A stretch of DNA of 62,008 nucleotides from a virus (taxonomy: Duplodnaviria; Caudoviricetes), in the IMG/VR virus record IMGVR_UViG_3300023184_000001, positions 1 through 62,008 of that record; one strand, given 5' to 3'. Shown in pieces: positions 11,226 to 42,093 of this stretch (positions are counted from its first letter, which is position 1; every line of letters begins with the position of its first letter). Made by a program: the position numbers and the translations under genes. The notes under the pieces were generated by a model. The model was not told the origin of the DNA, did not search any database, and saw only the letters and a program-made list of their open reading frames with translations.

Positions 11226-11856
11226 CTTGAGTTTGCTCTAGTTCTTGGGGGTCTAGCTGGCAGAGGTATGGGTCTGATTCTGGCTCCGGCTCGGGCATAG
11301 GTGTGGGTAACCCCAACTGCTCGTCCAGATCATCTATTGGGGTTACGTCCGTAACCGTTGTGTTCAGCAGGCGCTTGATCCGTTCCTTGATGGAGTTCTC
11401 TAGAGACGAAGACGTTGTGTGGTGCACAGTAATCTCGCTGCGCTCAGTGAAGATACCAATGTCGCTGTGCTTGCCAAGAAGCTCCAATGCCTTGAGTTCA
11501 AACCGGGGGTCGCCGCAGTCAGCAAGTTCAATGAGCTTGTTGGTAATAAAGTTACGGGCTTGAATTGCATCTGCAATTGCTTGGTAGTCGTACGCCTTGA
11601 GAATTTGCGCAGCTTTCTTAGCCACGCCGGGGATAGATACAGTTTTTGGTTCCTCACCCTTTGCCTCTCCCTTGATTAACGCACGGGCTCTGGCTTCATC
11701 CTCTTCAGAGAAGTCGATGCTGCCACCGAGTTGATCTATCAGGTCCGCAGTATTTGCAGCAATGGCAATACTGTCTGCGTGCGTCTTGGGTCTGTCAGCA
11801 GACAGATCAAAAGGCAGAGGGTGTTCTGCAGTAGGCGTAATTTCTATCATAAGCAC
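11218..11856 (-). CDS. Putative terminase small subunit
   Basis: Overlaps the terL start; LKALELLGK..IGIFTER motif; first gene of the late arm. Confidence 0.5.
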   Translation of the reverse strand: MLMIEITPTAEHPLPFDLSADRPKTHADSIAIAANTADLIDQLGGSIDFSEEDEARARALIKGEAKGEEPKTVSIPGVAKKAAQILKAYDYQAIADAIQARNFITNKLIELADCGDPRFELKALELLGKHSDIGIFTERSEITVHHTTSSSLENSIKERIKRLLNTTVTDVTPIDDLDEQLGLPTPMPEPEPESDPYLCQLDPQELEQTQDE

Positions 11857-11896
11857 CGGGTTAGCGGGAGATGCGCCAAATGTAACACAAAAATAT

Positions 11897-12120
11897 ATGG
11901 GGGTGGGGGTGTTCGATTTAGAAAAGTGACGGGGGGTGTTTCTAGGATGGGAAGTAGGAGGAGCAGCTTAGGAAATTTTGTAGGGGGGTGGGGGTGTTTT
12001 GTTTGGTTTGTTGCCGGGGGGGGTGTTTTGTTATGAAAAGTTTAATTTGGGGTGTCGGGTGAGCGGCGCATAGAGTAATGGTACTCGGTACCCGAATCCT
12101 GTATTTTTGGGGTGGTGGGG
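11897..12120 (+). repeat. G-run-rich low-complexity tract
   Basis: Many G4-G8 runs (ggggtgggggtg, ggggggtgggggtg, gggggggggtg) in non-coding DNA. Confidence 0.7.
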
Positions 12121-12287
12121 TCGCTGTCAACGTCAACACCTAACAATGTTAGGCCATATGGGGTCTATTTATTGTCCATGCTTATTATGGTTTATCGCAT
12201 TACTTTGTTATACATTAGAGGCATCGGTTGATCGCAACCGTTCGGTTTCCTAGTCTGCTACTAGGTGCATAGTCAAAAGGGTTTATC

Positions 12288-12806
12288 ATGAGTGCATTAG
12301 TTATTACCACGCCCGCATCGTCCGCTATCGCTATCCTGCGTGCTCGGGCCGTAGAATCAGAGTCATCGGTGTATGGTGCTCGTAGGGCTTACGCTCAGGG
12401 CATAAACGGGTTGTCCGATATCGCATGGTATCGTGATGGGGTTACTTTGCCGAAGGCCATCGCCGAAGAAAAATCAGAGTATTACAAGGCCTTGAAGGCC
12501 ATCGGTTATTCGAACCCGTCGAACGCTTGGAAGATGGTCAAACAGTATGCTTTCGAAGCTGCGAAAGCCGAAGGGTTATTCGGCGAAGTCACCGAGACCA
12601 AAGGCGAGACCGAAGGCGAGACCGAAGGCGAGACCCGCGAAGCCCGTTCACTGACTCTGCGCATGGTCGAAGAATTGACCAAACTGCACAAGGCTAGCAT
12701 GAAAACCCGCGACAACAAACCAGAGGAATACACGGACAAAATCCGGGCCGCTCATGGGCACGTTATCTCGGCCTTGAAATCAATGGGTGTCGATATCGGT
12801 ATCTGA
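12288..12806 (+). CDS. Hypothetical early protein
   Basis: 172 aa isolated ORF followed by a terminator and flanked by palindromic sites; internal ETEG repeat. Confidence 0.75.
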   Translation: MSALVITTPASSAIAILRARAVESESSVYGARRAYAQGINGLSDIAWYRDGVTLPKAIAEEKSEYYKALKAIGYSNPSNAWKMVKQYAFEAAKAEGLFGEVTETKGETEGETEGETREARSLTLRMVEELTKLHKASMKTRDNKPEEYTDKIRAAHGHVISALKSMGVDIGI

Positions 12807-12849
12807 TCAACCGGGGCAGGGTTTACCCTGCCCTAACAATGTTAGGCTT

Positions 12850-12874
12850 GCCCGGTTTTTACCGGGCTTTTTTT
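12850..12874 (+). terminator. Rho-independent terminator
   Basis: GCCCGGT-TTTT-ACCGGGC followed by a T run. Confidence 0.8.
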
Positions 12875-13046
12875 CGTCTGCGTTTTTTGTGCCTAACCTA
12901 ACATTGTTAGGCTGGCTCTTACCAGTTCTCTTGTCCGGGTTCGGGGCTGGCGCTGGATTTGCTGCTGCGGTGGAACCCGCAGGGGCTTGGGCTCTTCACT
13001 GCTAGTTCTCCCGTCCGGGTTCGGGGCTGGGTGATATGCTGCACGC

Positions 13047-13075
13047 AGCATATCAGTATTTTTTGCGCTTGTCAA
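13047..13075 (-). promoter_or_regulatory. Leftward sigma70-like promoter TTGACA-17-TATGCT
   Basis: Perfect -35, extended TG, 17-bp spacer; -10 overlapped by the inverted repeat 13032-13055. Confidence 0.55.
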
Positions 13076-13112
13076 GTCTTTTTTGCATTTACCCTAACAT
13101 TGTTAGCGCGAT

Positions 13113-13273
13113 TGCCTATTTTTTAAGCAGTTGTATATTGTTACGTTCCCCCCAAACTGCCTATTTTTTAAGCAACTGCCTATTTTTTAAGCAACTGCCT
13201 ATTTTTTAAGCAGTTGCCTATTTTTTAAGCAGTTGCCTATTTTTTAAGCAGTTGCCTATTTTTTAAGCAGTTG
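13113..13273. repeat. 19-bp tandem repeats TGCCTATTTTTTAAGCA(AC/GT): 6 tandem copies plus 1 isolated copy
   Basis: Units start at 13113, 13158, 13177, 13196, 13215, 13234, 13253. Confidence 0.9.
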
Positions 13274-13719
13274 ACGTTATGTTTGGGGCTGTTATGTTAT
13301 GTTTTGGGGGCCTAATGTTATTTTTAGATTGTGAAAAACGGGCTGGAAGCCCTGCGGCACAAGGGTTCCTTGCTATTATGTTTAATGTTATAATGTTACA
13401 CGAGGGGTATGAGAGTCGGAAAAGTACAGAACGCAAGAAAAACGCGCCATGAGCAAATTGTAGCACAGACCGTTTCGGACGCCATACCGTTTTTTTCACG
13501 TAACTATATCACACCAGCACTTACTACTACAATATAATATAAATACTAATAAAATCAAGTTATAGATCAACCACTTACGAATTCACCAAAAAACACCTCC
13601 TGCGTTACAAACCCGAAAACCACTCCTAACTTTATAGCACTTTTATAACTTCACCTTTTTGCCCCCTCTTGCCCCCAAAACCTTTACTCTTGCCCCTTGA
13701 GCAAAGCTCCTGCTTACAC

Positions 13720-13748
13720 TTGACTACCACATAACAATGTGGTACACT
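13720..13748 (+). promoter_or_regulatory. Early sigma70-like promoter TTGACT-17-TACACT
   Basis: Consensus spacing with extended TG; palindromic site at 13799 in the leader. Confidence 0.7.
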
Positions 13749-13837
13749 ATAGTCTCAAGTGGGAGATCGCCCCTTGAACACGGCAAACAGCCAACCAGCC
13801 TAACAATGTTAGGTCTAACAGCAAAGGAAGACACAAG

Positions 13838-14074
13838 ATGGGCCAAGTAAAGGCACTCCTCCACACCTGCACAGAGTGCGGGGACGACATAGACCCTCGG
13901 CGAGTTGCTTTGGGGTACAGGCTCTGCCTGTGGTGCGGCGAAGAAGCCGCAACGACCGAACGGAGGGGATGGACTGTGGTGCAGGAATACACCAAAGGCA
14001 ACTATCAGTTCATTACCCCTACCGCAGTAGTAGTAACCTTAAAGCAAACTAATCCGAAGGAGATACGGACATGA
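13838..14074 (+). CDS. Zinc-finger protein (DksA/TraR C4-like pattern)
   Basis: CTECGDDIDPRR..LGYRLCLWC. Confidence 0.6.
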   Translation: MGQVKALLHTCTECGDDIDPRRVALGYRLCLWCGEEAATTERRGWTVVQEYTKGNYQFITPTAVVVTLKQTNPKEIRT

Positions 14075-15312
14075 AGCGCCCCTACATCACCCAATACTTT
14101 GAAACCCCCAACGCATCGGGGAAAAAGCCAGCATCTACTGGCTACGCTGCAACCCTGCGCGGTGCACGCAGGAACATGGCCGTGCGCATAGTCCTCGGCC
14201 AATACGGGTTGGCTATAGTGGCCGAGCGGGAGAAGGCAACGACTGTGCCCCTGTGCACCATGCGCAGGACAACTGCGGGTCTATCCATTAAGGAGATGCA
14301 GACATGATATTTGAAGTCGAACTAAAACGGGAGTCCTATGTGGTGCTCGCCATCGAAGCAAACAACCCTGACGAAGCCGAGGCCAAAGCATGGGAAGAGA
14401 TAGCTCGCACCAACCCCCGCGAAGAAGGGTACTGGAGCATCGAGTCTATTGAAGATGCAGGAGGAGGAGCATGAAACGCTTTTTATGGGAACTTATCCAA
14501 GCCAGCATAGTTGCTGCCCTGCTCGGTGGGCCGCTGTTTTATTACCTTTTAGTGGAGATGAAACCATGAACGGAAAACCAATGCTATATCTAGACCAGTA
14601 CGGGAGCCGCTTCTGGGCTAACACTGTTAGGGAGTTGCGCAAGCAGATCGGCATGGGCGGCTCCAAGGTATCGAAGATGTACGTAGATAAGAAGGATGGC
14701 AGCACGGTGCACACTGGCTACGTAGTCGGCCAACACTGGCTAACAGCATATACACAAGTGGAGATGAAACCATGAACGACGAATTAAAAGACCTGCTCAG
14801 GCGGGTGCGGCATGCCAAAGAGATTCTTGGCATGGGTGGTTACGACCATGCTTATAGGGCAAACAAAGTGTTAGAAGTGGTCGCAGACAAACTGCGCTAC
14901 CTGTGCAAAATCACCGAGGATGAATTTGAACCAACACACAAAGGAGAAACGAAATGATCACCAACACATTCACCACAGAGGGCAACAAATACCATGTTGA
15001 GTCCCTCGGCAACGGGTGGGCGTACTCAGTCACCTGCCAGCGTACGGGTAAGAACTTCTTTGTGCAGGACAGCGATGCCGACACTCTGCAAAAGGAGACG
15101 GATGACTTCCAGTGCATCGGCGCACTGGACAACTATATGGAGGCCCTTGGGGGAGAAGCATGACTAGGTTCTTTGTGTCTGGCTGGAGCACTAGGTTCAG
15201 CGTGTGGCACTCCGAGGTCATCGAGGCCAAGAGCAAGAGTGCGGCCAAGGAGCGGTTCGCTGCCCTGCGGCCTACGCTGAAGCACATCAAGGTGCTGGTG
15301 CTGGGGAATTAG
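14071..15312 (+). CDS. Chain of translationally coupled small early ORFs (14071-14307, 14304-14474, 14471-14569 membrane peptide, 14566-14775, 14772-14957, 14954-15163, ~15160-15312)
   Basis: ATGA stop/start overlaps and GGAG RBSs; several are below the ORF-track cutoff. Confidence 0.65.
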
Positions 15313-15345
15313 TGGTTTTAGTTTAGTTTTACTTTAGGAGCTAGC

Positions 15346-16281
15346 ATGTACGGCAATTCAGGTATGAAAGAGATCAAGCGCATAGTGACGTATGCGGAGG
15401 CGAAGCTGCGGTACGAGCAGATCAAGCCCATCCGTGGCAGGGCTGGGGATGTGCGCCCACTGGGTAATCGGAAGAATGACAGCTACCGTATAGCTAAGCG
15501 GGTTAACCCGCTCAATGACACTACGTCCTATCAGTGCATCCTGTACCGCACCCCGATGGTTGAGTTCAAACCAGATGGTGATGTGGAGATCAACATGGGC
15601 GGGTGGGTCTCGACTGCAAACCGGACGTTTATCGAGCGCCTGCTGCACCTTAGCTGTTACTCAAAGAACGGTAGTAGTGTGCTGTGCCTTGGCAATAACG
15701 CCGAGGTTGTGCTGCACAAAACCAAGACCACAGTGATTCGTCGGCTGGAGGACTATCCATTCACGTGGGAACTAATGGTGAGTGAGCCGGTGTATGAAAC
15801 GCAGCTAAATAAGAAAAAAGCCAACGCTGTCCGGGCGCAATACAGCGAGTTTGAGAAGTACCTGAAAGGCATGGTGAACCTGCGGACAGAACAACGGGAA
15901 GCTAAAAATCACATGGGGGGCAGATACGAGTTGCCCCCAAGCATAAGGTTTGACAAAACCGAGTTTGCCGACATGGAGGTAGTGGCTTTCCGTGGTGATG
16001 TACGCACCGAGAACTTCCCGATGGAGTTAATGGCAAACGACCAACCGGAAGAGAGCAAGCACAGCAACTTCTACAGGGCTGCGCTTGAGATCGTTATGGC
16101 TATACGAAGGGGAAATCTTCCCGGAAATTCTGGCGTACACGTGCAAGCGGATTCACTGCTGCCCGAGTTCCGCGAGATTGTGTACAGGCACCACAGCGAC
16201 GAGGTATTTGAGAAGGTGCTGCTACCCGTGGGTAAGGCAGCAAGTAAGAAGTACGACAGTTGGGTCAAGCGGAAAGAGTAA
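15346..16281 (+). CDS. Hypothetical early protein (311 aa)
   Basis: AGGAG RBS; KPIRGR..DVRPLG.R N-terminus; no confident family. Confidence 0.7.
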   Translation: MYGNSGMKEIKRIVTYAEAKLRYEQIKPIRGRAGDVRPLGNRKNDSYRIAKRVNPLNDTTSYQCILYRTPMVEFKPDGDVEINMGGWVSTANRTFIERLLHLSCYSKNGSSVLCLGNNAEVVLHKTKTTVIRRLEDYPFTWELMVSEPVYETQLNKKKANAVRAQYSEFEKYLKGMVNLRTEQREAKNHMGGRYELPPSIRFDKTEFADMEVVAFRGDVRTENFPMELMANDQPEESKHSNFYRAALEIVMAIRRGNLPGNSGVHVQADSLLPEFREIVYRHHSDEVFEKVLLPVGKAASKKYDSWVKRKE

Positions 16282-16296
16282 AGGTTGCGCTTACGC

Positions 16297-16325
16297 TTGA
16301 CATAGGTACTATATTGTGTTACAAT
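16297..16325 (+). promoter_or_regulatory. Sigma70-like promoter TTGACA-17-TACAAT
   Basis: Near-perfect consensus; palindromic site at 16362 lies between it and the RBS. Confidence 0.8.
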
Positions 16326-16394
16326 GTAGCTTGATTAGGGGCAATACCGCCCGGTTAGTGGCCTAACAATGTTAGGTATTTTGTGGAGTTAGAA

Positions 16395-17462
16395 ATGGCT
16401 GAAGTTTCATTTGGTAAGAGCATCACGCTCAAGCAGGCTGCGAATCTGATTTGCAGCAATCCCGAGACACGGTTCCTCTTGCAGGGCGAGCCGGGTATTG
16501 GCAAGTCCTCTCTGCTGGAGATGATTGCCTCCCGTATGGGCTATGCCCACGCATACATAGACGTACCAAACATGGACCTTGGGGACATTGCGATGCCTGT
16601 CATCGACCATGACACCAAGACAACCCGGTATTACCCAAACGCTAGGTTCAAGGTGCACACTGGTGAACCTGTGGTGGTGATGCTCGACGAGTTCACCAAG
16701 GGTGCCGAGCCAGTGAAGAACATGCTGCATCCTATGCTGGAGAAAGCCAATCCACGCTTGGGTGATATCAGTCTCAACAAGGACTTGTTCATTGTGTTCC
16801 TGACGGGCAACCTGAGCACGGATGGGGTGGGCGACAACCTGAAAGCACATAGCCGTAACCGCTTGGTGCCCGTGACCATCAGTAAACCCGATGCCGACCA
16901 ATGGATCGAGTGGGCTATCGGCAAGGGCATCGAGGCCGAGGTGATTGCATGGGTGAGTCGGTTCCCGCAGGTGCTGGCGTCCTACACGGACGGGGGGCAG
17001 AACGACAACCCGTACATCTACAACCCCAAGAGGAATCAAAACGCCTTTGTCTCTCCCCGGTCATTGGAGACTGCATCTAACATTGTTAGGACTAGAAAAC
17101 AAAACGACCCCGATGCAGTGATCGCTGCGCTTACCGGTGCTATCGGTGAGTCCGGTGCTAGGGATATGCAGGCATACATTGAGTTTGCCGACCAGCTACC
17201 AACGTGGGAGGCTACGGTGACTAAGCCCGACACAGCGCCTGTGCCTACTAGCCCCGGTGCATGTGCCATCGTGGTGTTTGGTGCTATCTCCCGTGTGACC
17301 AAGGAGACCATGACACCGTTCATGCAGTACCTTGAGCGGTTCGCACCTGAGTGGCAAGCAGTGTTCGCAGTCAACATTGCCAAGACCCCGGCCAAGCAGT
17401 CCATTGCGTTCAGTTGCAAGGCGTTCGCCGACTGGTGTGCGAAAAACAACGACCTACTTTGA
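16395..17462 (+). CDS. MoxR-like AAA+ ATPase
   Basis: GEPGIGKS Walker A, VVMLDE Walker B, FLTGN sensor, SPRS motif. Confidence 0.85.
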   Translation: MAEVSFGKSITLKQAANLICSNPETRFLLQGEPGIGKSSLLEMIASRMGYAHAYIDVPNMDLGDIAMPVIDHDTKTTRYYPNARFKVHTGEPVVVMLDEFTKGAEPVKNMLHPMLEKANPRLGDISLNKDLFIVFLTGNLSTDGVGDNLKAHSRNRLVPVTISKPDADQWIEWAIGKGIEAEVIAWVSRFPQVLASYTDGGQNDNPYIYNPKRNQNAFVSPRSLETASNIVRTRKQNDPDAVIAALTGAIGESGARDMQAYIEFADQLPTWEATVTKPDTAPVPTSPGACAIVVFGAISRVTKETMTPFMQYLERFAPEWQAVFAVNIAKTPAKQSIAFSCKAFADWCAKNNDLL

Positions 17463-17472
17463 GGAGATAAAC

Positions 17473-18675
17473 ATGCAAGCAGAACGTAAATTGCAGAAGG
17501 CGAAGATTGCCTTGATGCGCAACAAGAACTTTGCCCTGTTGCAAGGTGTGATGATGATCGGCAAGACGAGCGTGGACGACAAGACGCCGACTGCCCGTAC
17601 TAACGGACGGGATGAGATTTACGGGCGCGAGTTCGTGACCAAGCTGCGTGACCAAGAGCTTTGCTTTGTGATTGCCCACGAGGCAGGGCACAAGATGTAT
17701 CGGCACCTGACCACATGGCGCAAGCTGCACGACGAGGATCACCAGCTAGCCAACATCGCCTGTGACCACGTGATCAACCTGATGCTCAGGGAGTTGGACC
17801 CCAGCGGGACGGTGATCTCCATGCCTGTGTACACAGACGGTCCGCACAAGGGCAAGCAGATGGGCATGTGCGACACACGGTTCAAGAACATGAACTCCAA
17901 GCAGGTGTTCGACATACTCAAGGAGGAGAAAGAGGAGGGTGGTCCCGGGGGTTCCGGTGATGGTGGTATTGACGAGCACGATTGGGGCGGTGCTAACGAC
18001 ATGACCGACGAGGAGAAGCGCGAGTTGGTGCGGGACATTGACCAAGCTATACGGCAGGGGTTGATGGCGCACAACAAGCAGGTGGGCGAGGGTGCGGGTG
18101 GACTAGACCGTGAGTTGCAGGAGTTGCTTACGCCCAAGGTCAACTGGCGGGAGGTGCTGCGTGACTACGTGAAGTCCATGTGTCACAGCAAGGACGCGAG
18201 TAGCTGGCGCAGGGTTAACCGTAGGTTCCTATCCACAGGTGTTTACATGCCCTCGATGATCGGTGAGAAGGTAGGTCATCTGGTGGTTGCGATAGACACA
18301 TCAGGCTCTATCGGGCAGGCTGAGTTGTCCGAGTTTCTGTCTGAGGTCAAGGGTATCGCCGAGGAGGTTAGCCCCGAGCTTGTGGACTTGATCTATTGGG
18401 ACAGCAAGGTGGCTGCACATGAGACGTACACGGAGTCCGAGGTGCCTAACATTGTTAGCTCTACCAAGCCACGAGGGGGTGGGGGTACTAGCCCAAGCTG
18501 CGTGTCGGACTACCTGAAGAAGGAGCAGATCGTGCCTCAGTGCGTGATCGTCCTGACTGATGGGTACGTGGGTGGCGACTGGGGTAACGACTGGACTGCG
18601 CCTGTTATGTGGGCCATCGTAGGAGGTAACGATGTGGTGGCACCGAACGGCAAGACGATTCATATCAAAGACTAA
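17473..18675 (+). CDS. Metallopeptidase (HExxH) plus vWA domain protein (DUF2201-like)
   Basis: TARTNG..IAHEAGH N-terminal domain; AIDTSGS MIDAS, GGGGT and VLTDG vWA motifs; GAGGAG RBS. Confidence 0.85.
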   Translation: MQAERKLQKAKIALMRNKNFALLQGVMMIGKTSVDDKTPTARTNGRDEIYGREFVTKLRDQELCFVIAHEAGHKMYRHLTTWRKLHDEDHQLANIACDHVINLMLRELDPSGTVISMPVYTDGPHKGKQMGMCDTRFKNMNSKQVFDILKEEKEEGGPGGSGDGGIDEHDWGGANDMTDEEKRELVRDIDQAIRQGLMAHNKQVGEGAGGLDRELQELLTPKVNWREVLRDYVKSMCHSKDASSWRRVNRRFLSTGVYMPSMIGEKVGHLVVAIDTSGSIGQAELSEFLSEVKGIAEEVSPELVDLIYWDSKVAAHETYTESEVPNIVSSTKPRGGGGTSPSCVSDYLKKEQIVPQCVIVLTDGYVGGDWGNDWTAPVMWAIVGGNDVVAPNGKTIHIKD

Positions 18676-18685
18676 GGAGAACGAC

Positions 18686-18922
18686 ATGATGGTTATGGAG
18701 CTTGGATACAACAGCATAGTGCTACCGGTCAAGGATGCCTTGGTAGTAGCTGAGATCATGCAACGTGCGGAGAAGTACGAGAAGAAATACAACCGTGGGG
18801 ACGATGGCAATAACAACTACACCTACCACGTGTGGGTTAACCCCGATGAGGTGGTGATGAAGCTCATCAGCGATGACATCTACCGTGTGGCGAAGCTAGC
18901 GGGTAAACCGGAAAAGAATTGA
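18686..18922 (+). CDS. Hypothetical protein
   Basis: AAGGAG RBS, 78 aa. Confidence 0.65.
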   Translation: MMVMELGYNSIVLPVKDALVVAEIMQRAEKYEKKYNRGDDGNNNYTYHVWVNPDEVVMKLISDDIYRVAKLAGKPEKN

Positions 18923-18946
18923 GTAACCAACCAAAGGAGAAATGAA

Positions 18947-19798
18947 ATGAGTATTAGTGCATCAGCAGTGTTAGTGGAACTGAATATTAGTGTGTGGCCT
19001 GCGTCGAAGATCGACCGGGAGACAACTGAACTAACCAATACAAACGCAGGGGCAGTGCGTGACGCATCGCAGACCAAGAAGAACCTGTTCGCAGGCACCA
19101 GCATCCGCAAGGACATTGAGAAGTTCGCGGCTCGGGCTCGGCTGTACCACAACCTGCACACGTTGCCGTGGGCAGACAAGGGTGAGCGCATGTTGCCGAC
19201 CAAGTTGTTCATGGAGTACAAGCAGACGATGAATGGGTTTGAGAAGACGTTCAGCATGATGTGCAACAACTTCTTCATCGAGTACCCGCGTCTGGTGATA
19301 GAAGCACCTACCAACCTAGGTGCAATGTACAAGGCGGGTGATTACCCTGATATCGAAGAAGTCAAGCAAAAGTTTGGGTTCCGTCGATCAGTCAACCCTA
19401 TGCCCGACTCCGGCGACTTTCGCTTGGACATACCAGCAGAGGACTTGGATGATGTGCGAGCAGAGTTCCGCGACAAGTTCGACGAGCGGCTGAAGGAAGC
19501 TATGCGTGCGCCGTGGGACAAGCTGCACTCAGTGCTGCTAGGTGTATCTGAAAAGCTGAAGGAAGGTAACGATGGAGACAAGAAGCGGTACCACGACTCG
19601 CTGCTGACCAACCCGCTGGAGTTGTGTGCCCTGCTGACTAAGCTCAACGTGACCAACGACCCCATGCTGGAAGAGGCACGCAGACAGGTGGAGCTAACAA
19701 TGTTAGGGGCTAACTTGGAAAGCATCAAGGAAGACGCTGGCTCGCGTGGCGACCTGAAGTCCAAGGTTGACTCCATCCTCGGCAAATTCAACTGGTAG
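18947..19798 (+). CDS. DUF3150-like protein
   Basis: AVLVELNISVW...KK.LF...HTLPW helical protein next to the AAA/vWA pair. Confidence 0.55.
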   Translation: MSISASAVLVELNISVWPASKIDRETTELTNTNAGAVRDASQTKKNLFAGTSIRKDIEKFAARARLYHNLHTLPWADKGERMLPTKLFMEYKQTMNGFEKTFSMMCNNFFIEYPRLVIEAPTNLGAMYKAGDYPDIEEVKQKFGFRRSVNPMPDSGDFRLDIPAEDLDDVRAEFRDKFDERLKEAMRAPWDKLHSVLLGVSEKLKEGNDGDKKRYHDSLLTNPLELCALLTKLNVTNDPMLEEARRQVELTMLGANLESIKEDAGSRGDLKSKVDSILGKFNW

Positions 19799-19808
19799 GG
19801 AGAAACAC

Positions 19809-20669
19809 ATGAACGCAATGGAATTACCTAACGTACACCCAACGGAGGACGAGTCTGCCGAGTGGGTGGTAATTAGCGTACTGGCTCCGGTCATATGGGA
19901 ACTGGCAAGCAAAAACCCGCTGTGGGTTTTCAAGGCAACAAAGTACCGCATGAATGCAGGCCAGTACTTAGCAACCCACTTCTCAGTGCACTACAACTAC
20001 GAATTGCTGGGCACAATCGTTGGGGGTTACATAAGCCACAGATTTGGGAACGGAATTATTATATCCAACGAACGAATAGTAGAGGGCATGAAACGGTCTT
20101 CAGAGGGGTACAAAACTATTAACCCTACCAAAGCCATAGCAAAAGTTAAGTCAATGTTCAAGCCCAAGTCTAGTTCAGAAATTGTGGCTAAAGCGTATGA
20201 ACTAGCAACCCAAATTGGGAACACAGAACATCGCGCTAAAAATCGGGAGGTTGAAACGCTAAAGCTCAAACACAGGGACGCAGTTATAGCCTTTGCAATG
20301 TCCCCAGCAGGGCAAGAGTTGTTCCTAGATTACGTAAAGCAAAACAACATACCGGATGTCGTACGCAACATGCACATGGCGGAAACTAAGGGGGTAGAAC
20401 TGTCTACTATCGAAGACATTAGAACAGCCATAGGGACGGACAGAAGCGCCCTAGTCATCGTAGATGCGGGTAAGTACCTAGTCAAAACAGGTGACAATGT
20501 GCAACTTTATGACGACAATACGCTCCCGGCTTTCATACGAAGCAAGCTGGGGCTACTCAAGTTGGTGAACCCAAAACAGTTCGTTACCGACATTGGGTGC
20601 AGGGCGAGCAATGAGATTTTTGTAATCAAGCTAGACAAAACCACTAAAACCGAAGGAGAAAACGAGTGA
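19809..20669 (+). CDS. Hypothetical protein
   Basis: 286 aa, GGGAG RBS. Confidence 0.7.
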   Translation: MNAMELPNVHPTEDESAEWVVISVLAPVIWELASKNPLWVFKATKYRMNAGQYLATHFSVHYNYELLGTIVGGYISHRFGNGIIISNERIVEGMKRSSEGYKTINPTKAIAKVKSMFKPKSSSEIVAKAYELATQIGNTEHRAKNREVETLKLKHRDAVIAFAMSPAGQELFLDYVKQNNIPDVVRNMHMAETKGVELSTIEDIRTAIGTDRSALVIVDAGKYLVKTGDNVQLYDDNTLPAFIRSKLGLLKLVNPKQFVTDIGCRASNEIFVIKLDKTTKTEGENE

Positions 20670-23600
20670 TCGCACTTATCAAGAACTATTTACGCAAACC
20701 CACGCCGCTGGAGATGGTTGCTAGGGAGTTGGCTGTCGCACACTTGTGCAAGCTAGAGGCAGAGACAGCGGTGGACTACGCCGTGAGTGTCGTGCGCTAC
20801 AACGACACACGCATCAAGAGGCTGGAGCAACACATCAACAACCACAAGGAGCAGGTATGAGTGACACCAAGGAGATGGTATTGCTGGTCAGCAATCTGCT
20901 GGTGCAGCAAGCGATTGAGTCACGGGCTAGAAAGCCTGAGTCAGTGTGGCTCCCTCATTCGTTTGAGGAGGCCGAGGCCAATGCGAACTTGTTCGCAAAG
21001 ACACAACTACCTATGACAGACCCCGAACGCAAGCGTAACTTGATACGTGCGTACGACCGAGTAAAACAATCAAGGGAGACATACCATGTATGACGATGGA
21101 GACTATGGTGGCATCGACGAGTTCATGTACTGGGTGACGCTTGTCATTCTTTTTCTGATGACGACTGTCTTTCTGGGCGCGGTGGCTGGACTTATGTATT
21201 GGACATTGATATGAAACACACACCAGCACCTTGGGTTAGCAGGGGGGCGTCAATACGCCCAGCAAAAGGCCCCGGCAGTACAGGAGGGTACAGACCTTTG
21301 GCATCGGCGCAGCACGACAAGCGCCTGCCTGACAACCGCCTTGAAAACGCAAGGATGATTGCTGCTGCCCCCGAACTATATGAAGCTCTTGCATGGCTGA
21401 TGCGACAAGTACCAGAGCCAAGCCTCAAGGGTGAGTACACAACGGGCTACCTTGCTTGCAAAGTTGTATTGCACAAAGCTATAAACGGAGAAGGGGTAGG
21501 AGCATGAACACCGAAGAAGATGAGTTTCGAAGGATCGAACGTGAGGCTTTGCGCCGAGCAGCGAGGGACGAGGATGATGACACACAGGTTTACAAGAAGC
21601 CGTGGGTAGGGCTGACGGAGGAGGAAATTCAAGAACTTAGGCTTAGGACTTTTGATGCAATTGCAACAAACTACGAAATTTACCGAGCCATTGAAGCCAA
21701 GCTGAAGGAGCGCAACACATGACTAAAGATGAAATCATCCTCATGGCAGACGCCTCCGGGTTGTCTTATTACGGCATGGGTAAAGACAGGGATAAATTTC
21801 TGCACTACCTTGAAGCCTTTGCCGATCTTGTCGCTGCTGCTGAGCGTGAGGCGTGTGCAAAGTTGCGTGACACGCTTCATCCATTTGATTTACATAGCCG
21901 ATCTGAGATGCTTGGCGTTATGAACCAAGGTCTTGATGACTACCAAAATTTAATCCGAGCAAGGGGAAACACATGACTGACTTAAGACAAGCCGCGCAGC
22001 AGGCGCTGGAGGCGCTAGAGAATATTGACAGAGCAATGCCATTTCCTGTGGCTAAGTTGGCTCAATCCGCCATTAAAGAAGCCTTGGCACAGCCAGAGCA
22101 GGAGCCAGATCGCCGATCTTTGCAAGCCGCAGGAACCCACCCAGCACCCTGCGCTCGTCACTGCGAAAGTAAGGCATATGAAATTGAGATTCGTTCGCTG
22201 AAATCTGCGCTAAAGCAGCAGCAGCAAGCCGAGCCAGAGCAGGAGCCTGTGGCGTGGGGAGTGTTTGAGGGCAATCTGCACGATATGTTTTTTACGCAAG
22301 AGGAAGCGCAGGAAATGGCTGCTTTAAAAGGAACTCATGCCAAAGTGCGGCCCCTCTACACCGCACCAACACAGCGCCCGTGGCAGGGTCTGACGGATGA
22401 TGAGATAAAAGAAATCGTTGGGCCGTGGGGCGACACACCCATCAAGGGGTACACCCGCAAAATGTTTGACAAAATTGAAGTTAAGTTACGGGAGAAAAAT
22501 CAATGAACAAAGAAACCCAAAGAATCATGGAAGCACTGATGCTGATATACGGCAGTGACTTGCAAGCCGCAACAATCACTGTGCTACTCAAAGATGGCGA
22601 CACTGCTGTGCGTTTTATTACATTAACCATTCCACAGAAGGAGACAGAGAAATGATTTACACAAGATTTCACGCAGACGTATGGTTTCTACTACCAACAG
22701 TTGCTATTGGCCGTGGCGATAAGCTATGGGCTGAACTGGCTTGGTTTGGTGTGGCTGTCGGGATAAAGAAAGGTGGGTGGCGTAAATGACTGAACGAGTA
22801 TTGACAGACAACAACGGCAGCAAGTACATCACGACTGAGCCACTCTACACCGCCCCACCACCATGCCCAACGTGCGAAGCATTGGCGCGAACCGTGATGC
22901 TTGACCAGACATCGCACGACAACTTCAAACCAGACTGGGATGCAATGGCAGTCATGGTTGAGGAGCAGCAGCGCATGGCAAAGCGCATTGAAGACTTAGA
23001 AACAATGCTGGAGCGACAAACAGCCCGCATCGTTGACTTGCAAGAACACATTGAAAACTTTGATGGAGAAGACAGATGAACGATTTATTTAAGCCGCATC
23101 AATGCCCACGATGCTTTGGTCTATTTAAGGTGGGAGATAGGTTTTGGAATGACTCAGGAACTGTTTATCACTGGATTTGCTGGGTAAATAAATCAAAGGA
23201 GAAAACCAATGACACTAACTGAAGAACAAATTTGGAAGTGCAACCAAACCATCAACTATGAAAATGGCGAAGTTGTAGACGGTGTTCACATTTGCGTTGC
23301 CCATCAAAACGTGGTGGACTTTGCACGTTCAATTGAGCGAGAGATTGGGTTTGACAGGGCTGAGCTTTGGATCAAGCGCATCAATGATGCTGTGCTTGCC
23401 GAGCGAGAAGCCTGCGCTAAAGTGTGTGAAGATGCCTCGGGAACAGGAAAAGTAATTAGCTGTATGAGCGCAGCCGCCGCCATTCGAGCAAGGGGAGAAA
23501 AATCATGACTGATGATGACTACGACGCCTTGAGTCAAAGACATTTGGCATCAATTAAACGCGATATGCGGATAAGCCTTGAAGACGCAGCGGTTCGCGCT

Positions 23601-24028
23601 ACGCACAAAGTGATGGCTGAATTAGAGACAGAGCAAGACTGCGTAGGTTGGTTTGGCTACGACACAGGGTTGCGTCTTTGGTTTGAAACAAACAAAGGTG
23701 ACGATGGTGCTATCCCGCTGTACAAAAACTCACCACAGCGCCCGTGGGTAGGGCTGACGGATGAGGAACTGTTCGAGTTGAGCGCTTCGGGCTTGGCCTT
23801 GTGGGCCTTGTGGCGCGGCATCGAAGCCAAACTCAAGGAGCGCAACACATGACCCAACCAAATAAACAGCACATACACGAACGCCTTGGCATGTCCGTGG
23901 AGGAGGCACTCAACCGTTTAATTTCGTTTGGGCAGCTTAACCACAAGTACAAGCAAGAACACGGCGAGAGCATTAACCCGCAGCACCTTGATGCTGTGCT
24001 TAACGCTACCAAGGAGAAGAACGCTTGA
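20666..24028 (+). CDS. Array of about 14 small overlapping accessory ORFs (e.g. 20666-20860, 20857-21093, 21086-21214 TM, 21211-21507, 21504-21722, 21719-21976, 21973-22506, 22503-22655, 22652-22789, 22786-23079, 23209-23508, 23505-23852, 23849-24028)
   Basis: ATGA coupling; shared modules PWVGLTDEE..IEAKLKERN and AEREACAK..IRARG. Confidence 0.7.
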
Positions 24029-24234
24029 GATGCCCCATCTGCAATGCACAGACTGATGTAAAAGACTCACGAACACGAAAGGAAACCAACAGTGTTATCA
24101 GAAAACGTAAATGCTTCAATGACCACACCTTCCAAACGGAAGAAAAAGCCAATCAACTTCTACGACCCATTCCAAAGGGTAGACCCGAAACTGCTGGAGC
24201 AGATGTACCGAGCAGCACAAAAGGAAAAGCGTAA
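24025..24234 (+). CDS. NrdR-N-like zinc-ribbon protein
   Basis: MRCPIC....VKDSR.....IRKRKC...HTFQTEE resembles the NrdR N-terminal zinc ribbon; no ATP-cone. Confidence 0.6.
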   Translation: MRCPICNAQTDVKDSRTRKETNSVIRKRKCFNDHTFQTEEKANQLLRPIPKGRPETAGADVPSSTKGKA

Positions 24235-24255
24235 AGAGCTACCAGAGGCACTACT

Positions 24256-24462
24256 ATGACAACCGGAATTGAATTCTTAAAGCTACCAAAAAAACGCACG
24301 GGGCGAGGCCCCAACAAGAAGCCTACCTTGGTCAGTGTCAGCTTGCGTATTCCTCATGAGGTGCTGGACTATTTCACGACGCAGTACCCGTACACAAAGC
24401 AGGCGAAGATACGTGAAGCCCTTGTTGCGTTCGTCAAAAAAGAGAAAGGAAAAGACAAATGA
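24256..24462 (+). CDS. Ribbon-helix-helix / BrnA-like DNA-binding protein
   Basis: GRGP.KKP....VSLRIPHEVLDYF......QAKIREAL. Confidence 0.55.
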   Translation: MTTGIEFLKLPKKRTGRGPNKKPTLVSVSLRIPHEVLDYFTTQYPYTKQAKIREALVAFVKKEKGKDK

Positions 24463-24674
24463 GCGATCCAGTAAATCACCCCGACCACTACAAGGTGGGG
24501 GGCATCGAGACCATTGACTTCATTGAGGCTAAGCAACTGACGTACAACATTGGCAACGTGGTCAAGTACATCACTCGTGCCGACCACAAAGGCAATCAGT
24601 TGCAGGACTTGCAGAAGGCGCAGTGGTATCTGGCCCGAGAGATACAGCGCATCGAAAAGACCGCAGCAGCCTAA
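24459..24674 (+). CDS. DUF3310 protein (T7 gp1.7-like nucleotide kinase family)
   Basis: DPVNHPDHY..GGIETIDFI...GNVVKYI.RA.HKG...DLQKAQWYL. Confidence 0.85.
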   Translation: MSDPVNHPDHYKVGGIETIDFIEAKQLTYNIGNVVKYITRADHKGNQLQDLQKAQWYLAREIQRIEKTAAA

Positions 24675-24693
24675 CATTGTTAGGGTAAACACC

Positions 24694-24755
24694 AACCCGT
24701 TTCGACGGGTTTTTTTACGTCTGTGCTTGTACAAAGTCAAATGTTGTGGTACATT
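24694..24755 (+). promoter_or_regulatory. Terminator (AACCCGT-TTCG-ACGGGTT-T run) followed by promoter TTGTAC-17-TACATT
   Basis: Separates the accessory block from the replication operon. Confidence 0.65.
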
Positions 24756-24782
24756 AGGCTCCATAAACGACTGGAGTGTTAG

Positions 24783-25079
24783 ATGGCAACAACCCCCGAG
24801 ACCAAGGTCAAGGCAAAGATCAAGGGCATCCTCAAAGCCCACAATGTTTACTACGCTATGCCAATAGGCACCGGCTACGGTAACTCAGGCGTCCCCGATT
24901 TCCTCTGCTGCGTTAACGGCCACTTCCTAGGCATCGAAGCCAAGGCAGGCAAAGGCACGACGACTGCACTGCAGGATAAGAACATCCAGCAGATCAAGGA
25001 TGCCGGGGGCACAGCAACGGTAGTCAACGAAGACACGCTTGCCTACCTAGAACAACTAATACAAATGATGAAAACATGA
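24783..25079 (+). CDS. VRR-NUC domain nuclease
   Basis: PE..VK...GVPD....G.F.GIEAKA......LQ PD-(D/E)XK pattern. Confidence 0.85.
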   Translation: MATTPETKVKAKIKGILKAHNVYYAMPIGTGYGNSGVPDFLCCVNGHFLGIEAKAGKGTTTALQDKNIQQIKDAGGTATVVNEDTLAYLEQLIQMMKT

Positions 25080-26365
25080 AAATTCTCGCTTTGGATTTCG
25101 AATCCTATTACTCACAAGAGTTCAGCCTCACCAAGATGACCAATGAGGAGTACGTGCGCTCCTTTGATTTTGAGGTCATTGGTGTGTCGGTGCAGGTAGA
25201 TGACGGCGAGCCCGAGTGGTTTACCGGGGACATGATACAGACCGCTGTATTCCTGCGCAAGTTCGATTGGGAGAATAGCCTAGCCCTAGCTCACAATGCT
25301 GCGTTCGATGCGTCTATCCTTACGTGGATATTCGGTATCAAGCCGAAGGGCTGGTTGGACACGTTGTCGATGGGGCGTGCGCTGCACGGCACTGAGGTCG
25401 GTGGTAGCTTGGCTGTACTTGCAAAGCACTACGGGGTGGGCACTAAGGGCACTGAGGTAGTCACGGCGAAGGGGCTACGCCGTAAGGACTTTCCTAAGGA
25501 GCAGCTAGCAGAGTACGGCAAGTATTGCTGCAACGACACGGCCATAACCTATGCCCTGTTCCAAAAAATGGCCGAGAATTTCCCGCCGAGTGAGTTGCGA
25601 TTGATTGACCTGACCATACGCATGTTCTCGGAGCCCGTGCTGCAGTTGGACGAGGGGATTCTGACCGTGCACTTGGGTGAGGTTAGGCGCAAGAAGCAGG
25701 AGTTGCTGAGCAGGATGCTGATCGACAAGGATCAGTTGATGAGCAACAAACAGCTTGCGAAGGTGCTTGAGGGCTTTGGTGTGGTTGCGCCCATGAAGAT
25801 TAGCCCAGCTAACGGCAAACAGACCTACGCATTTTCTAAAACCGATGAGGAGTTTAAGGCGTTACTTGAGCATGACAACGTGACCGTGCAGGCCATCGTC
25901 GCTGCGCGGCTTGGGGTCAAGTCAACCATCGAGGAGACACGGACTGAGAGGTTTATTGGGATCGCCAAACGCGGTTCTATGCCAGTTCCCCTCCGCTACT
26001 ACGCTGCACACACAGGCCGATGGGGCGGTTGCTTAGTGGCCGACACTGAGGTAACGGTGTACAATACGGAAAACGAGGTAGAAGTTAAGCGCATCGTAGA
26101 TGTTTTGCTTGATGACCTAGTTTGGGACGGAGAAGAGTTTGTGCCCCACGAAGGTGTGGTGTTCAGCGGGTTCTCTGAAGTTATTAGCTGGGACGGTGTA
26201 ACAGGAACGGAAGATCATGTCGTATTCACAGACGCTGGGGAGATTAGCCTACGAAGCGCGATGCAGGGAGGCCACAAAATCGCGGTTGCGGGAAGCCCTA
26301 CCCAAAACAATGTGGACGCCGCTAGGAAGTCTGTACGTAACTACCAAGCAGAAAGTTTTGTGTGA
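25076..26365 (+). CDS. polA: DNA polymerase A N-terminal part (3'-5' exonuclease/thumb, 318 aa) fused to a split intein N-half (111 aa, from Cys at 26030)
   Basis: LDFESY, AHNAAFD, YCCND exonuclease motifs; HTGRWGG followed by CLVADTEV (intein block A) and GTEDHVVFT (block B TxxH); ends in a stop. Confidence 0.9.
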   Translation: MKILALDFESYYSQEFSLTKMTNEEYVRSFDFEVIGVSVQVDDGEPEWFTGDMIQTAVFLRKFDWENSLALAHNAAFDASILTWIFGIKPKGWLDTLSMGRALHGTEVGGSLAVLAKHYGVGTKGTEVVTAKGLRRKDFPKEQLAEYGKYCCNDTAITYALFQKMAENFPPSELRLIDLTIRMFSEPVLQLDEGILTVHLGEVRRKKQELLSRMLIDKDQLMSNKQLAKVLEGFGVVAPMKISPANGKQTYAFSKTDEEFKALLEHDNVTVQAIVAARLGVKSTIEETRTERFIGIAKRGSMPVPLRYYAAHTGRWGGCLVADTEVTVYNTENEVEVKRIVDVLLDDLVWDGEEFVPHEGVVFSGFSEVISWDGVTGTEDHVVFTDAGEISLRSAMQGGHKIAVAGSPTQNNVDAARKSVRNYQAESFV

Positions 26366-26984
26366 GTGTTGCTGCGGCAAGCAGTACGAGGTACGGGCGC
26401 GGGAGTTACTAGACGGCAAATCCATGAGTTGCCGTTCGTGTTCTTCCAAACTAAAAATGCTAAACCGCCCGATGGACGAACGAGTACGGATAGCCAAACT
26501 TGCGTCTGACGCGGCGCTCGCCGCTTTAACCACCAAGGCACATCCATACAGGGACAAATACGGAGTTGAGGAATATAGCGTAGTTAAAAGAACTATGGCA
26601 GGGGCCAAACAGCGGTGTTCCAACCCAAACTGTATAGGGTATTCGAACTACGGAGGTAGGGGTGTAGAGTTTAAGTTCCCCGCGCTAAAGCCCGCTATTG
26701 AATGGGTACTGGACAACTTAGGCGTAAGGCCAAGCCTGCTTCATTCCATAGATCGTATAGATAATAACCGAGGATACGAAGCGGGGAACTTACGGTGGGC
26801 TACTCGCGTGGAGCAAGCGCGAAATAAGCGAGTGTATAGGCGTACACAAAACGGCGAACGTATACGTGGGCTGAAAAAACAGCGCCCAGACCTTACCTAC
26901 GAGACCTTGCGGCTATGGATTACTCAAGGCGTCACTGATGATGAAATTTTAAACCGGAGGAAGTATGCTCGTACCAGTGTATGA
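26217..26984 (+). CDS. Free-standing HNH-type homing endonuclease between the intein halves (start 26217 or 26310)
   Basis: CECCCG..SCRSC; RC.NPN...Y.NYGGRG...SIDRIDNNRGYEAGNLRWAT..EQARN. Confidence 0.85.
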   Translation: MSYSQTLGRLAYEARCREATKSRLREALPKTMWTPLGSLYVTTKQKVLCECCCGKQYEVRARELLDGKSMSCRSCSSKLKMLNRPMDERVRIAKLASDAALAALTTKAHPYRDKYGVEEYSVVKRTMAGAKQRCSNPNCIGYSNYGGRGVEFKFPALKPAIEWVLDNLGVRPSLLHSIDRIDNNRGYEAGNLRWATRVEQARNKRVYRRTQNGERIRGLKKQRPDLTYETLRLWITQGVTDDEILNRRKYARTSV

Positions 26985-27915
26985 CATTAAGAATTGTGGC
27001 CCGCGACACCGATTTTCTGCCAACGGAAAATTAGCGCATAACTCAGATAACGTAAACCTGCAGAACCTGCCACGCAAATCCCCGCTGAAGTATTCCATCA
27101 TTGCCCCCGATGGGTATGTTGTGTTGGACTCAGACTCATCCCAGATCGAAGCCCGTACGCTGGCATGGCTAGCTGGGCAGAATGACTTGGTTGAAGCATT
27201 CGATAAGGGCGAGGATGTGTACTGCATCATGGCGTCAGCCATCTACGGACGCCAGATTACCAAGGCTGACGAGCGTGAACGCTTTGTAGGTAAAACGACG
27301 ATTTTGGGTAGCGGCTACGCCATGGGTGCACCGAAGTTCAAGCTGCAACTGAAAAACTTTGGCGTTGACGTTGAGCTAGACGAGGCCAAGCGAATCATTG
27401 CTACCTACCGGGCTACCTACCCTAACATTGTTAGGCTGTGGGCAGAAGCTGGTGACATGCTCAGGGCCATGCTACGGAACGCACAAACAACACTGGGGCG
27501 TAACGGGCTGCTGGAAGTCGATGGAGCCAACGGCATCAAGCTACCCAATGGGCTATACCTGCGCTACCCAAACTTGCGCCTACGCGAGGACGAGAAGACA
27601 GGCAAGGTCGAAGTTGTGTACGACACCAAGAAGGGCAAAACAGTTATTCCCAACCGCATATACGGTGGTAAGGTGATAGAGAACGTGTGTCAGGCGCTAG
27701 CCCGCATCGTCATAGGTGAGCAGATGCTCATGGTGGCGAAGAAGTATCGGGTAGTCATGACCGTGCACGATGCGATTGCTGTCGTAGCCCCTAAAGCCGA
27801 GGCTGAAACAGCCAAGGAGTACGTTGAGTTGTGTATGCGACTCAGACCCAAATGGGCGCTGGAACTACCCCTCAACTGTGAATCTGGATATGGAGATAGC
27901 TATGGCGACTGCTAG
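26965..27915 (+). CDS. polA: Split intein C-half (26 aa) fused to the DNA polymerase A palm/fingers domain (290 aa)
   Basis: GGAGG RBS; MLVPVYDIKNCGPRHRFSANGKLAHN|S then DNVNLQNLPR; motif A DSSQIEAR, motif B RFVGKTTILGSGY, motif C VHDA. Confidence 0.92.
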   Translation: MLVPVYDIKNCGPRHRFSANGKLAHNSDNVNLQNLPRKSPLKYSIIAPDGYVVLDSDSSQIEARTLAWLAGQNDLVEAFDKGEDVYCIMASAIYGRQITKADERERFVGKTTILGSGYAMGAPKFKLQLKNFGVDVELDEAKRIIATYRATYPNIVRLWAEAGDMLRAMLRNAQTTLGRNGLLEVDGANGIKLPNGLYLRYPNLRLREDEKTGKVEVVYDTKKGKTVIPNRIYGGKVIENVCQALARIVIGEQMLMVAKKYRVVMTVHDAIAVVAPKAEAETAKEYVELCMRLRPKWALELPLNCESGYGDSYGDC

Positions 27916-35542: not shown

Positions 35543-35569
35543 ACCCCCGGTCTTCACCGGGGGTTTTTT
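35543..35569. terminator. Terminator at the convergence of the two arms
   Basis: ACCCCCGGT-CTTC-ACCGGGGGT followed by a T run. Confidence 0.85.
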
Positions 35570-42092: not shown

Positions 42093-42093
42093 G

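Follow-up and report, generated by a model that had tools for sequence, protein, structure and literature searches.

An array of twelve exact palindromes was found in the early arm of the tailed phage (Caudoviricetes) recorded as IMGVR_UViG_3300023184_000001. The window analysed in the present study is this whole IMG/VR record, 62,008 bp in length, with 51% G+C and an 87-bp repeat at both ends. Each site has the form CTAACA-N-TGTTAG (13 bp, hereafter N1), and N2 and N3 denote a 2- or 3-nt centre. The array is real and is selected on the DNA; its sites keep to places defined by promoters and terminators, and the motif differs between lineages. We propose, with a probability of roughly one half, that the twelve palindromes are double-stranded DNA sites for a phage-encoded, sequence-specific symmetric dimer, which would control the transcription of the early block (12.1-24.7 kb). 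Protein binding, a roadblock effect and the identity of the binder are the parts of this proposal that we infer from the sequence.

First, the number, exactness and position of the sites were determined by scanning the whole record. Eleven sites match CTAACAWTGTTAG exactly and a twelfth copy has C at its centre, and all twelve exact CTAACA-N-TGTTAG sites lie within 12140-27434 (Table 1). These eleven cores and the central-C copy had been listed in a preliminary description of this DNA, in which the starts of 15-bp sites equal the core coordinates minus one. The chance expectation of far below one copy given there was also borne out, as the mean number of CTAACAWTGTTAG copies was 0.00 in 100 dinucleotide-preserving shuffles. 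When any centre base and up to two mismatches were allowed, 15 matches were obtained, comprising the 12 exact sites, no one-mismatch site and three two-mismatch matches (5608, 24086 and 46373), of which 2.4 would be expected by chance. The full form CCTAACA-N-TGTTAGG is present in 7 of the 12 sites. The density decreases from about 12.1 kb, as had been described, with five sites at 12.1-13.9 kb, five at 14.6-19.7 kb and two at 24.6-27.5 kb; no site was detected in 27.5-35.3 kb or in the minus-strand arms. Because the window is the entire record, this absence outside the early arm is a statement about the whole genome, and the uneven distribution, with all 12 copies in the early arm and none in the late arm, agrees with the earlier inspection by eye. 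Six of the twelve sites lie between open reading frames (ORFs), five inside ORFs and one across a stop codon. The in-gene copies are in-frame and leave the length of the gene unchanged. The readings SNIVR, PNIVS, LTMLG and PNIVR given previously for four of these copies are correct, to which a copy in a small ORF (14618) and the copy over the stop codon (24671) can be added. The label "DUF3150-like" could not be reproduced for ORF 18947-19798, for which no Pfam hit was obtained at E<=0.01. None of the 12 sites overlaps the -35 or -10 element of a predicted plus-strand promoter, and two lie in leaders after promoters.

Second, the sites were compared among 58 related contigs fetched by the vWA protein. 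At least one exact copy is present in 44 of these contigs and at least five are present in 28, with a maximum of 16 copies in 21 kb. In the near-complete relatives G001, G002, G003 and G004, the copies are located within one arm of 11-18 kb, with a single outlier in G003. Relatives with at least five N1 sites hold 176 distinct perfect sites versus 25 one-mismatch sites, 22 of which are altered at the outermost base and three internally; recognition is all-or-none. The site in the AAA ATPase gene is exact in 9 of 10 aligned genomes with N1 arrays, at 72-90% nucleotide identity, and in none of 6 aligned genomes without N1 arrays, in which similar residues are encoded by different codons. In genomes of the CTGACA-N2 type, the site in the vWA gene reads CTGACAttTGTCAG, and NIVSS is replaced with DICQT. 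Thus, when the synonymous sites of the intragenic copies were checked, the exact codons were kept only in genomes carrying the N1 motif, and the sites are under strong selection on the DNA sequence itself. Variant words of the same design (CTAACA-N2, CTAACA-N3, CTGACA-N2, GTAACA-N2 and TTAACA-N2) were observed in other lineages. Five relatives (L042, L047, L048, L049 and L052), the AAA ATPases of which are 97% identical and the vWA proteins 86-93% identical, differ in many small early genes and in the type of motif, which indicates recent modular exchange. The nearest relative by proteins (G007) shares 80-91% identity in core genes and yet has lost the array, retaining one exact copy, one copy with a single change and a few copies of another palindrome. 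In two further relatives (L056 and L057, 51% vWA identity), the word GTTTAAAC occurs 24 times in 16 kb, often filling exactly the gap from GGAGG to the ATG of an early gene; three of four other relatives tested lack this word. This word is a start-linked variant of the palindrome phenomenon.

Third, the sites are placed at preferred distances from transcription signals. Across the relatives, a site is present 5-80 nt after the -10 element, mostly at 37-54 nt, in 33 of 60 distinct strong plus-strand sigma-70-like promoters, compared with 5.7% at random. Likewise, for 20 of 32 distinct strong terminators a site ends at most 60 nt upstream, mostly 4-22 nt, compared with 7.2% at random. With a crude start finder, 80 of 275 sites (approximately 29%) were counted 10-40 nt ahead of a start codon with a ribosome-binding site, compared with 15% at random, and the sites linked to neither starts, promoters nor terminators are in-frame inside genes. 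Two promoters and two terminators of the window illustrate both spacings (Table 1), and the leader position previously noted for the sites at 13799 and 16362 was confirmed, with promoters lying ahead of both. These results show that the sites mark transcription units, and because the distances to promoters and terminators are fixed, transcription control is favoured over coating, partition or DNA entry.

Table 1. Positions of the palindrome sites and of the associated genes and predicted transcription signals in the window
Feature	Position	Strand	Context or basis
Plus-strand early arm	12288-35329	+	ORF list, Pfam/PHROG scans
Site 1, centre A	12140..12152	.	Divergent region between leftward packaging genes and first early gene; conserved in L008 and L025
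First early-arm gene (gene 1), 172 amino acids; candidate binder, orphan helical family	12288..12806	+	Flanked by sites
Site 2, centre A	12833..12845	.	27 nt past stop of first gene, 4 nt ahead of terminator stem
Intrinsic terminator of first gene	12850..12877	+	7-bp stem with 6 GC pairs, then T-run
Site 3, centre T	12898..12910	.	Non-coding
Site 4, centre T	13094..13106	.	Non-coding, directly ahead of iteron array
Sigma-70-like promoter TTGACT-17-TACACT, TG-extended	13720..13748	+	
Site 5, centre A	13800..13812	.	51 nt past -10, 25 nt ahead of ATG at 13838
Site 6, centre C	14618..14630	.	In ORF 14449-14775; phage-specific, missing at the same place in L008 and L030
Sigma-70-like promoter TTGACA-17-TACAAT, 11/12 matches	16297..16325	+	
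Site 7, centre A	16363..16375	.	37 nt past -10, 19 nt ahead of AAA ATPase ATG (16395)
Site 8, centre T	17077..17089	.	In-frame in AAA ATPase (SNIVR)
Site 9, centre T	18446..18458	.	In-frame in vWA/DUF2201 protein (PNIVS)
Site 10, centre A	19694..19706	.	In-frame in ORF 18947-19798 (LTMLG)
Site 11, centre T	24671..24683	.	Across stop codon of DUF3310 ORF, 10 nt ahead of terminator stem
Intrinsic terminator closing the site-rich early block	24694..24720	+	One site beyond
Site 12, centre T	27422..27434	.	In-frame in C-terminal part of DNA polymerase A (PNIVR)

The best candidate for the binder is encoded by the first early gene (gene 1), which is flanked by sites in the window and in every relative having it, and the subfamilies of which change with the motif variant. 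This assignment is tentative, and the odds are against it, albeit not heavily. Gene 1 has 918 unnamed homologues, and the family was observed only in genomes with TAACA/TGACA palindromes. A gene-1 profile finds members in CTAACA-N1, CTGACA-N2, GTAACA-N2 and, as a fragment, CTAACA-N2 genomes; no member was found in G007, in which other genes occupy the place of gene 1 and the array is lost. The most conserved 10-residue stretch of the protein (0.93) is the NPSxxWxxV segment, and CTAACA-N1 arrays are present at all 17 loci where gene 1 is of the NPSxxWxxV type and downstream DNA is available. The CTGACA-N2 and GTAACA-N2 proteins (three N2-type members) have a two-residue insertion and other residues in this segment; a further search for N2-type loci yielded one new locus, lacking downstream DNA. 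AlphaFold2 models of the full-length protein and of residues 1-100 (predicted local distance difference test scores of 73.8 and 75.2, respectively) are all-helical, with an N-domain of four predicted helices, followed by a disordered, acidic linker and a helical hairpin at the C-terminus. A search of the ESM Atlas returned unnamed viral clusters and only a weak DUF3102 lead at 0.83, and when the gene-1 profile was compared by hhalign with the genes in first position in G007, G006 and L056, the probabilities were below 1%. Among the candidates named in the preliminary description, this orphan gene is the only one that fits. The ribbon-helix-helix (24256) and helix-turn-helix (32242) proteins can be set aside, as their DNA-reading segments are identical across genomes with different motifs, and no repressor was recognised in the phage. 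A zinc-finger protein was also considered as the specificity determinant and rejected, because alignment by motif type showed it to be the same in genomes with different words.

Herein, we propose a roadblock model for the array. The two subunits of the dimer would each recognise one (C)CTAACA arm. Sites located in the initially transcribed region of host-type early promoters, at about +31 to +48, and other sites located just ahead of unit-closing terminators and ahead of or inside internal genes, would allow the bound protein to act as a promoter-proximal and internal roadblock. The early block might then be turned down, or its units insulated, once the protein accumulates. If the product of gene 1 is the binder, the gene would regulate itself. 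In a wider version of this model, which must be regarded as rather doubtful, orphan gene 1 and the array might form one exchangeable module, with a new-fold binder that, from positions at the beginning, at the end and within each early transcription unit, times or insulates early expression and decides which co-infecting relatives express their early genes, in an immunity-like manner, in lytic freshwater phages. This last role is suggested because close relatives carry different words.

Several observations weigh against the proposed control by a dimer, and particularly against gene 1 as its source. Operators are not usually exact in this all-or-none manner. Some genomes (L047, L048 and L052) contain both N1 and N2 sites, or both CTAACA and CTGACA sites, which is awkward for a rigid dimer unless some of the sites were imported through recent recombination. 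Only about a third of the sites (80/275) are ahead of starts, and it is not obvious how a site approximately 10 nt ahead of a terminator would serve as a roadblock. Gene 1 has no Pfam or PHROG family; neither of its models has a Foldseek match at E<=0.001 or a known DNA-binding fold, and the best VIA match of the models is KaiA (Z 6.3 and 7.3), within the stated helical noise. The family evolves rapidly even at the same motif, with 34% identity between the window and G004, and a member is undetectable in G006, which has TTAACA-N2 sites. Moreover, the co-variation of gene 1 and motif covers three motif classes, with few independent contrasts, and of the 30 rows assigned to the N1 type in the comparison of the gene-1 segment, 22 lack DNA context.

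The palindrome could also act after transcription, as a small RNA hairpin bound or cut by a phage protein in nut/boxB-type antitermination, mRNA-end protection or RegB-like decay of early mRNA. This explanation is unlikely, albeit with an appreciable share of the probability, since N1 and N2 sites coexist, since the N2 spacer is biased on the sense strand (AA 33 versus TT 11) and since sites adjoin terminators. The placement of sites in transcribed leaders, beside terminators and ahead of starts would suit such an element, 1-, 2- and 3-nt spacers in one genome fit variable loops, and the L056/L057 word lies between the ribosome-binding site and ATG. In addition, the first gene has a site ahead of it and a site and a terminator behind it, as in the pL-nutL-N-tL1 layout of lambda. 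However, among 196 distinct N1 sites the centre holds A 98 times and T 95 times (193 sites together), with no strand bias; the predicted RNA hairpins are weak (-3.1 to -7.5 kcal/mol), and three of six folded no better than shuffles; G-U-compatible variants are not favoured (2 per strand among the 25 one-mismatch sites); and the 8-bp GTTTAAAC is unable to fold on itself. For these four reasons, the sites are interpreted as double-stranded DNA sites for a symmetric dimer. The symmetric arms reach 7 bp, and a hairpin signal needs no exact two-fold symmetry over arms of this length. The flanks are A-rich on the sense strand (0.30 A, 0.20 T). A search of 11.5-16.5 kb against Rfam found no family at the gathering score, the best match being SorX with 26 bits versus 46.6 required.

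The remaining explanations are considerably less probable than those above. The preliminary description had proposed a parS/matS-like array, with a dimeric protein coating, protecting or localising the first-entering DNA or pulling it in. Of this proposal, the present results support selected sites for a sequence-specific binder with two-fold symmetry; coating, partition and DNA entry are unsupported. The density does decrease away from the divergence point at 12.1 kb, and with G-rich repeats and a gene in the small-terminase position adjoining this point, a packaging end there is conceivable. However, the placement follows promoters and terminators at fixed distances, the 87-bp end repeat lies elsewhere, and the assemblies of relatives are circularly permuted in other ways. 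Scanning 53 ORFs with Pfam (40 in the early arm and 13 others) detected no ParB, ParA or SMC-type protein, and scanning 80 ORFs with PHROG detected no ParB or ParA, with all of these ORFs at least 50 amino acids long. An entry or coating role is therefore improbable. Equally improbable is the view that the sites are primarily recombination linkers, identical short words at cassette borders for the swapping of early genes, with protein binding secondary. There is much mosaicism among the early genes, blocks with at least 85% identity between relatives end within 25 bp of a site in 14 of 73 cases (5.1% at random), and insertions and deletions between repeats are described by the Cluster O authors (PMC4351075). 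This breakpoint enrichment is confounded, as sites and module borders are both intergenic, and linkers would leave unexplained the in-frame sites with synonymous codons, the fixed distances to promoters and terminators and the concerted switch of the motif in each genome.

A host transcription factor or nucleoid protein exploited by the phage might bind the sites, consistent with the finding that no phage protein with a recognised DNA-binding fold follows the motif. A bacterial metagenome-assembled genome (G011, reached via L148; record title Dinoroseobacter sp.) also holds 21 copies of the same 13-mer, which often occur in pairs spaced by approximately 100 bp and form the tips of longer hairpins between genes, resembling repetitive extragenic palindromic (REP) elements. 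The 13-mer is absent from 200 other genomes of the same family, and the G011 copies are probably an unrelated REP-like element and a coincidence; other genome contigs have scattered, mostly single copies among the matches listed. Phages with 97%-identical AAA ATPases and 86-93%-identical vWA proteins use different motifs, and the nearest relative (G007) has lost the array, making the host binder suggested previously very unlikely. The least probable explanation, with only a slight chance, would make the sites hairpin promoters of the N4 type, used by a virion RNA polymerase. It was prompted by the vWA and AAA genes, which are nearest to those of N4-like phages: the best cultured matches of the vWA protein are approximately 30% identical and in records of 74-80 kb, which we take to be N4-like. 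A stem of 6-7 bp with a 3-nt loop and the location of sites ahead of genes would also fit. Nevertheless, sites also lie ahead of terminators and inside genes, and no purine bias was observed at the loop centre on either strand. The 2188-amino-acid virion protein matches PLxRFG/DarB-like proteins of approximately 60-kb phages in the C-terminal 40% only, and at the sequence level no polymerase match was obtained for it by PHROG, Pfam, tblastn or PDB sequence search. A REP element with its RAYT transposase was also considered and rejected, because five of the 12 copies lie within coding sequences, in-frame and with gene length unchanged, and no transposase family was seen in Pfam/PHROG scans of the window ORFs.

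Among published systems, the closest analogue is the 17-bp dyad repeat TGTTCGG-NNN-CCGAACA of Cluster O mycobacteriophages, which is present in 34 invariant copies with an A/T-rich centre and is of unknown function (PMC4351075). Both arrays have invariant inverted arms, an A/T-rich centre and many copies, located between and inside genes and near starts; both lack a clear orientation to transcription, lose copies through single base changes and show recombination between copies. Its authors propose a dimeric protein and consider a transcriptional role unlikely (PMC4351075). The word, the host type and the phage type are unrelated, and, in contrast to the Cluster O repeat, the present arms are 6-7 bp with a 1-nt centre, confinement to the early block is strict, and the sites are tied to promoters and terminators with statistically tight spacing. 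With respect to the function proposed here, the array is nearest to the stoperators of Cluster A mycobacteriophages, to which the roadblock action proposed here would be akin. In these phages, 20-30 near-identical 13-bp stoperators are located in transcribed DNA, mostly outside promoters, as are the 12 sites here; the stoperator consensus varies among related phages together with the protein that binds it, and this protein blocks elongation when bound (PMC6550527). Stoperators are asymmetric, oriented to transcription, distributed genome-wide in temperate phages and bound by a helix-turn-helix immunity repressor. In contrast, the present sites are perfect palindromes with an unbiased centre (98 A/95 T), are confined to one arm and have only a candidate binder, and no integrase or repressor was found among the ORFs scanned. 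The start-associated sequences (SAS) and extended SAS (ESAS) of Cluster K phages (PMC3203893) are repeated words of unknown function that immediately precede the start codons of some non-structural genes. With their variable spacer and subcluster-specific consensus, the inverted repeats of the ESAS resemble the present motif; unlike the present sites, the SAS lacks symmetry and takes in the ribosome-binding site, and the repeats of the ESAS are imperfect (PMC3203893). Only about 29% of the present sites are start-linked, and the GTTTAAAC word of L056/L057 is closer to SAS. The OB sites of the IncP plasmid protein KorB, a ParB-family protein with a ParA partner, are approximately a dozen 13-bp perfect palindromes with a free centre base, which are located at promoters and distant positions and serve one global regulator. 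The present array is similar to KorB OB and to ParB-parS in having a palindromic site of 13-16 bp in several exact copies (12 here), and differs from KorB OB in that no ParB or ParA was found among the ORFs scanned.

Invariant palindrome arrays have been known in several phage groups for more than 10 years with their function untested, and the array described here is another case, to which a quantitative link to promoters and terminators and one concrete candidate binder are added. The case is abundant, with the phage stretch present in lake and freshwater metagenome runs of 17 studies, in addition to the 918 homologues of gene 1. It also offers clean experimental handles, namely host-type sigma-70 promoters, which laboratory bacteria should be able to use, fixed spacings both from promoter to site and from site to terminator, naturally occurring variants of the motif, a close relative that lacks the array and a single candidate binder. 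If gene 1 binds the sites, a new DNA-binding fold and a testable model of how an array controls a whole early block would be obtained; if it does not, the array would be a strongly selected signal without a reader.

The genes of the plus-strand early arm encode small orphan proteins, the AAA ATPase (the true start of which is the ATG at 16395), the DUF2201/vWA protein, a DUF3310 protein, DNA polymerase A, a PD-(D/E)XK nuclease, an SNF2 helicase, a helix-turn-helix protein and a DUF927 primase. The minus-strand arms encode head, portal, terminase, tail-fibre and lysis proteins and the 2188-amino-acid PLxRFG/LPD39 virion protein. At the nucleotide level, no match to the early arm was found among 50,697 phage records, and cultured relatives are distant, with protein matches of approximately 30% identity. 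Judged by its primase, Pseudomonas phage Rollin is the closest cultured phage (30% identity), and the palindrome array was not found in the 49 kb examined of its 61-kb record. In raw-read RNA runs the phage was found in none, and one metatranscriptome contig set contained 6% of the sampled words. DNA polymerase A of the window is split into ORFs 25076-26365 and 26965-27915, interrupted by an HNH-endonuclease ORF (26217-26984). Because the polymerase is a single uninterrupted ORF in G003, G004, G006 and G007, this result suggests an insertion of the homing-endonuclease or intron type. The first gene after the promoter at 13720 (13838-14074) encodes a 78-amino-acid protein with a CxxC...CxxC pattern, which is kept in nearly all relatives including G007; it has no Pfam hit and looks like a zinc finger of the TraR/DksA type, as judged by the cysteine pattern. 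The virion protein is encoded on the minus strand at 35568-42134; its final 40% is the part related to PLxRFG/DarB-like proteins, and residues 1-1280 gave no match in sequence searches. At 9-2621, plus-strand ORFs translate to Pro/Val-rich repeats almost without homologues; these ORFs may be shadows of minus-strand genes, and the gene map is unreliable in this stretch.

Several other repeated elements were observed close to the first sites of the array. Seven copies of a 19-bp unit, TGCCTATTTTTTAAGCA(A/G)(C/T), six of which are in tandem, are located in ORF-free DNA at 13113-13271, between the terminator of the first gene and the next promoter, with three palindrome sites just to the left. These units look like the iterons of a replication origin. 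They are followed at 13270-13400 by a cluster of (A)ATGTTA words resembling half-sites, which may be read by a different conserved protein, because the cluster is also present in the palindrome-less G007 (L077, about 50.9-51.3 kb). Two copies of a 27-nt element, AGTTCTC..GTCCGGGTTCGGGGCTGG, are located at 12924-12950 and 13004-13030, and similar words (ccagttccctgcgtgggggtagcc) occupy the same place in G007, L030 and L035; the element has no hit in Rfam and may be a small structured element. Finally, G-rich repeats (GGGGTGGGGGTGTT and similar words) at 11896-12120 in the divergent region, adjoining the minus-strand gene in the small-terminase position (11218-11856), are conserved in L008 and G007 and are a candidate packaging or regulatory signal.

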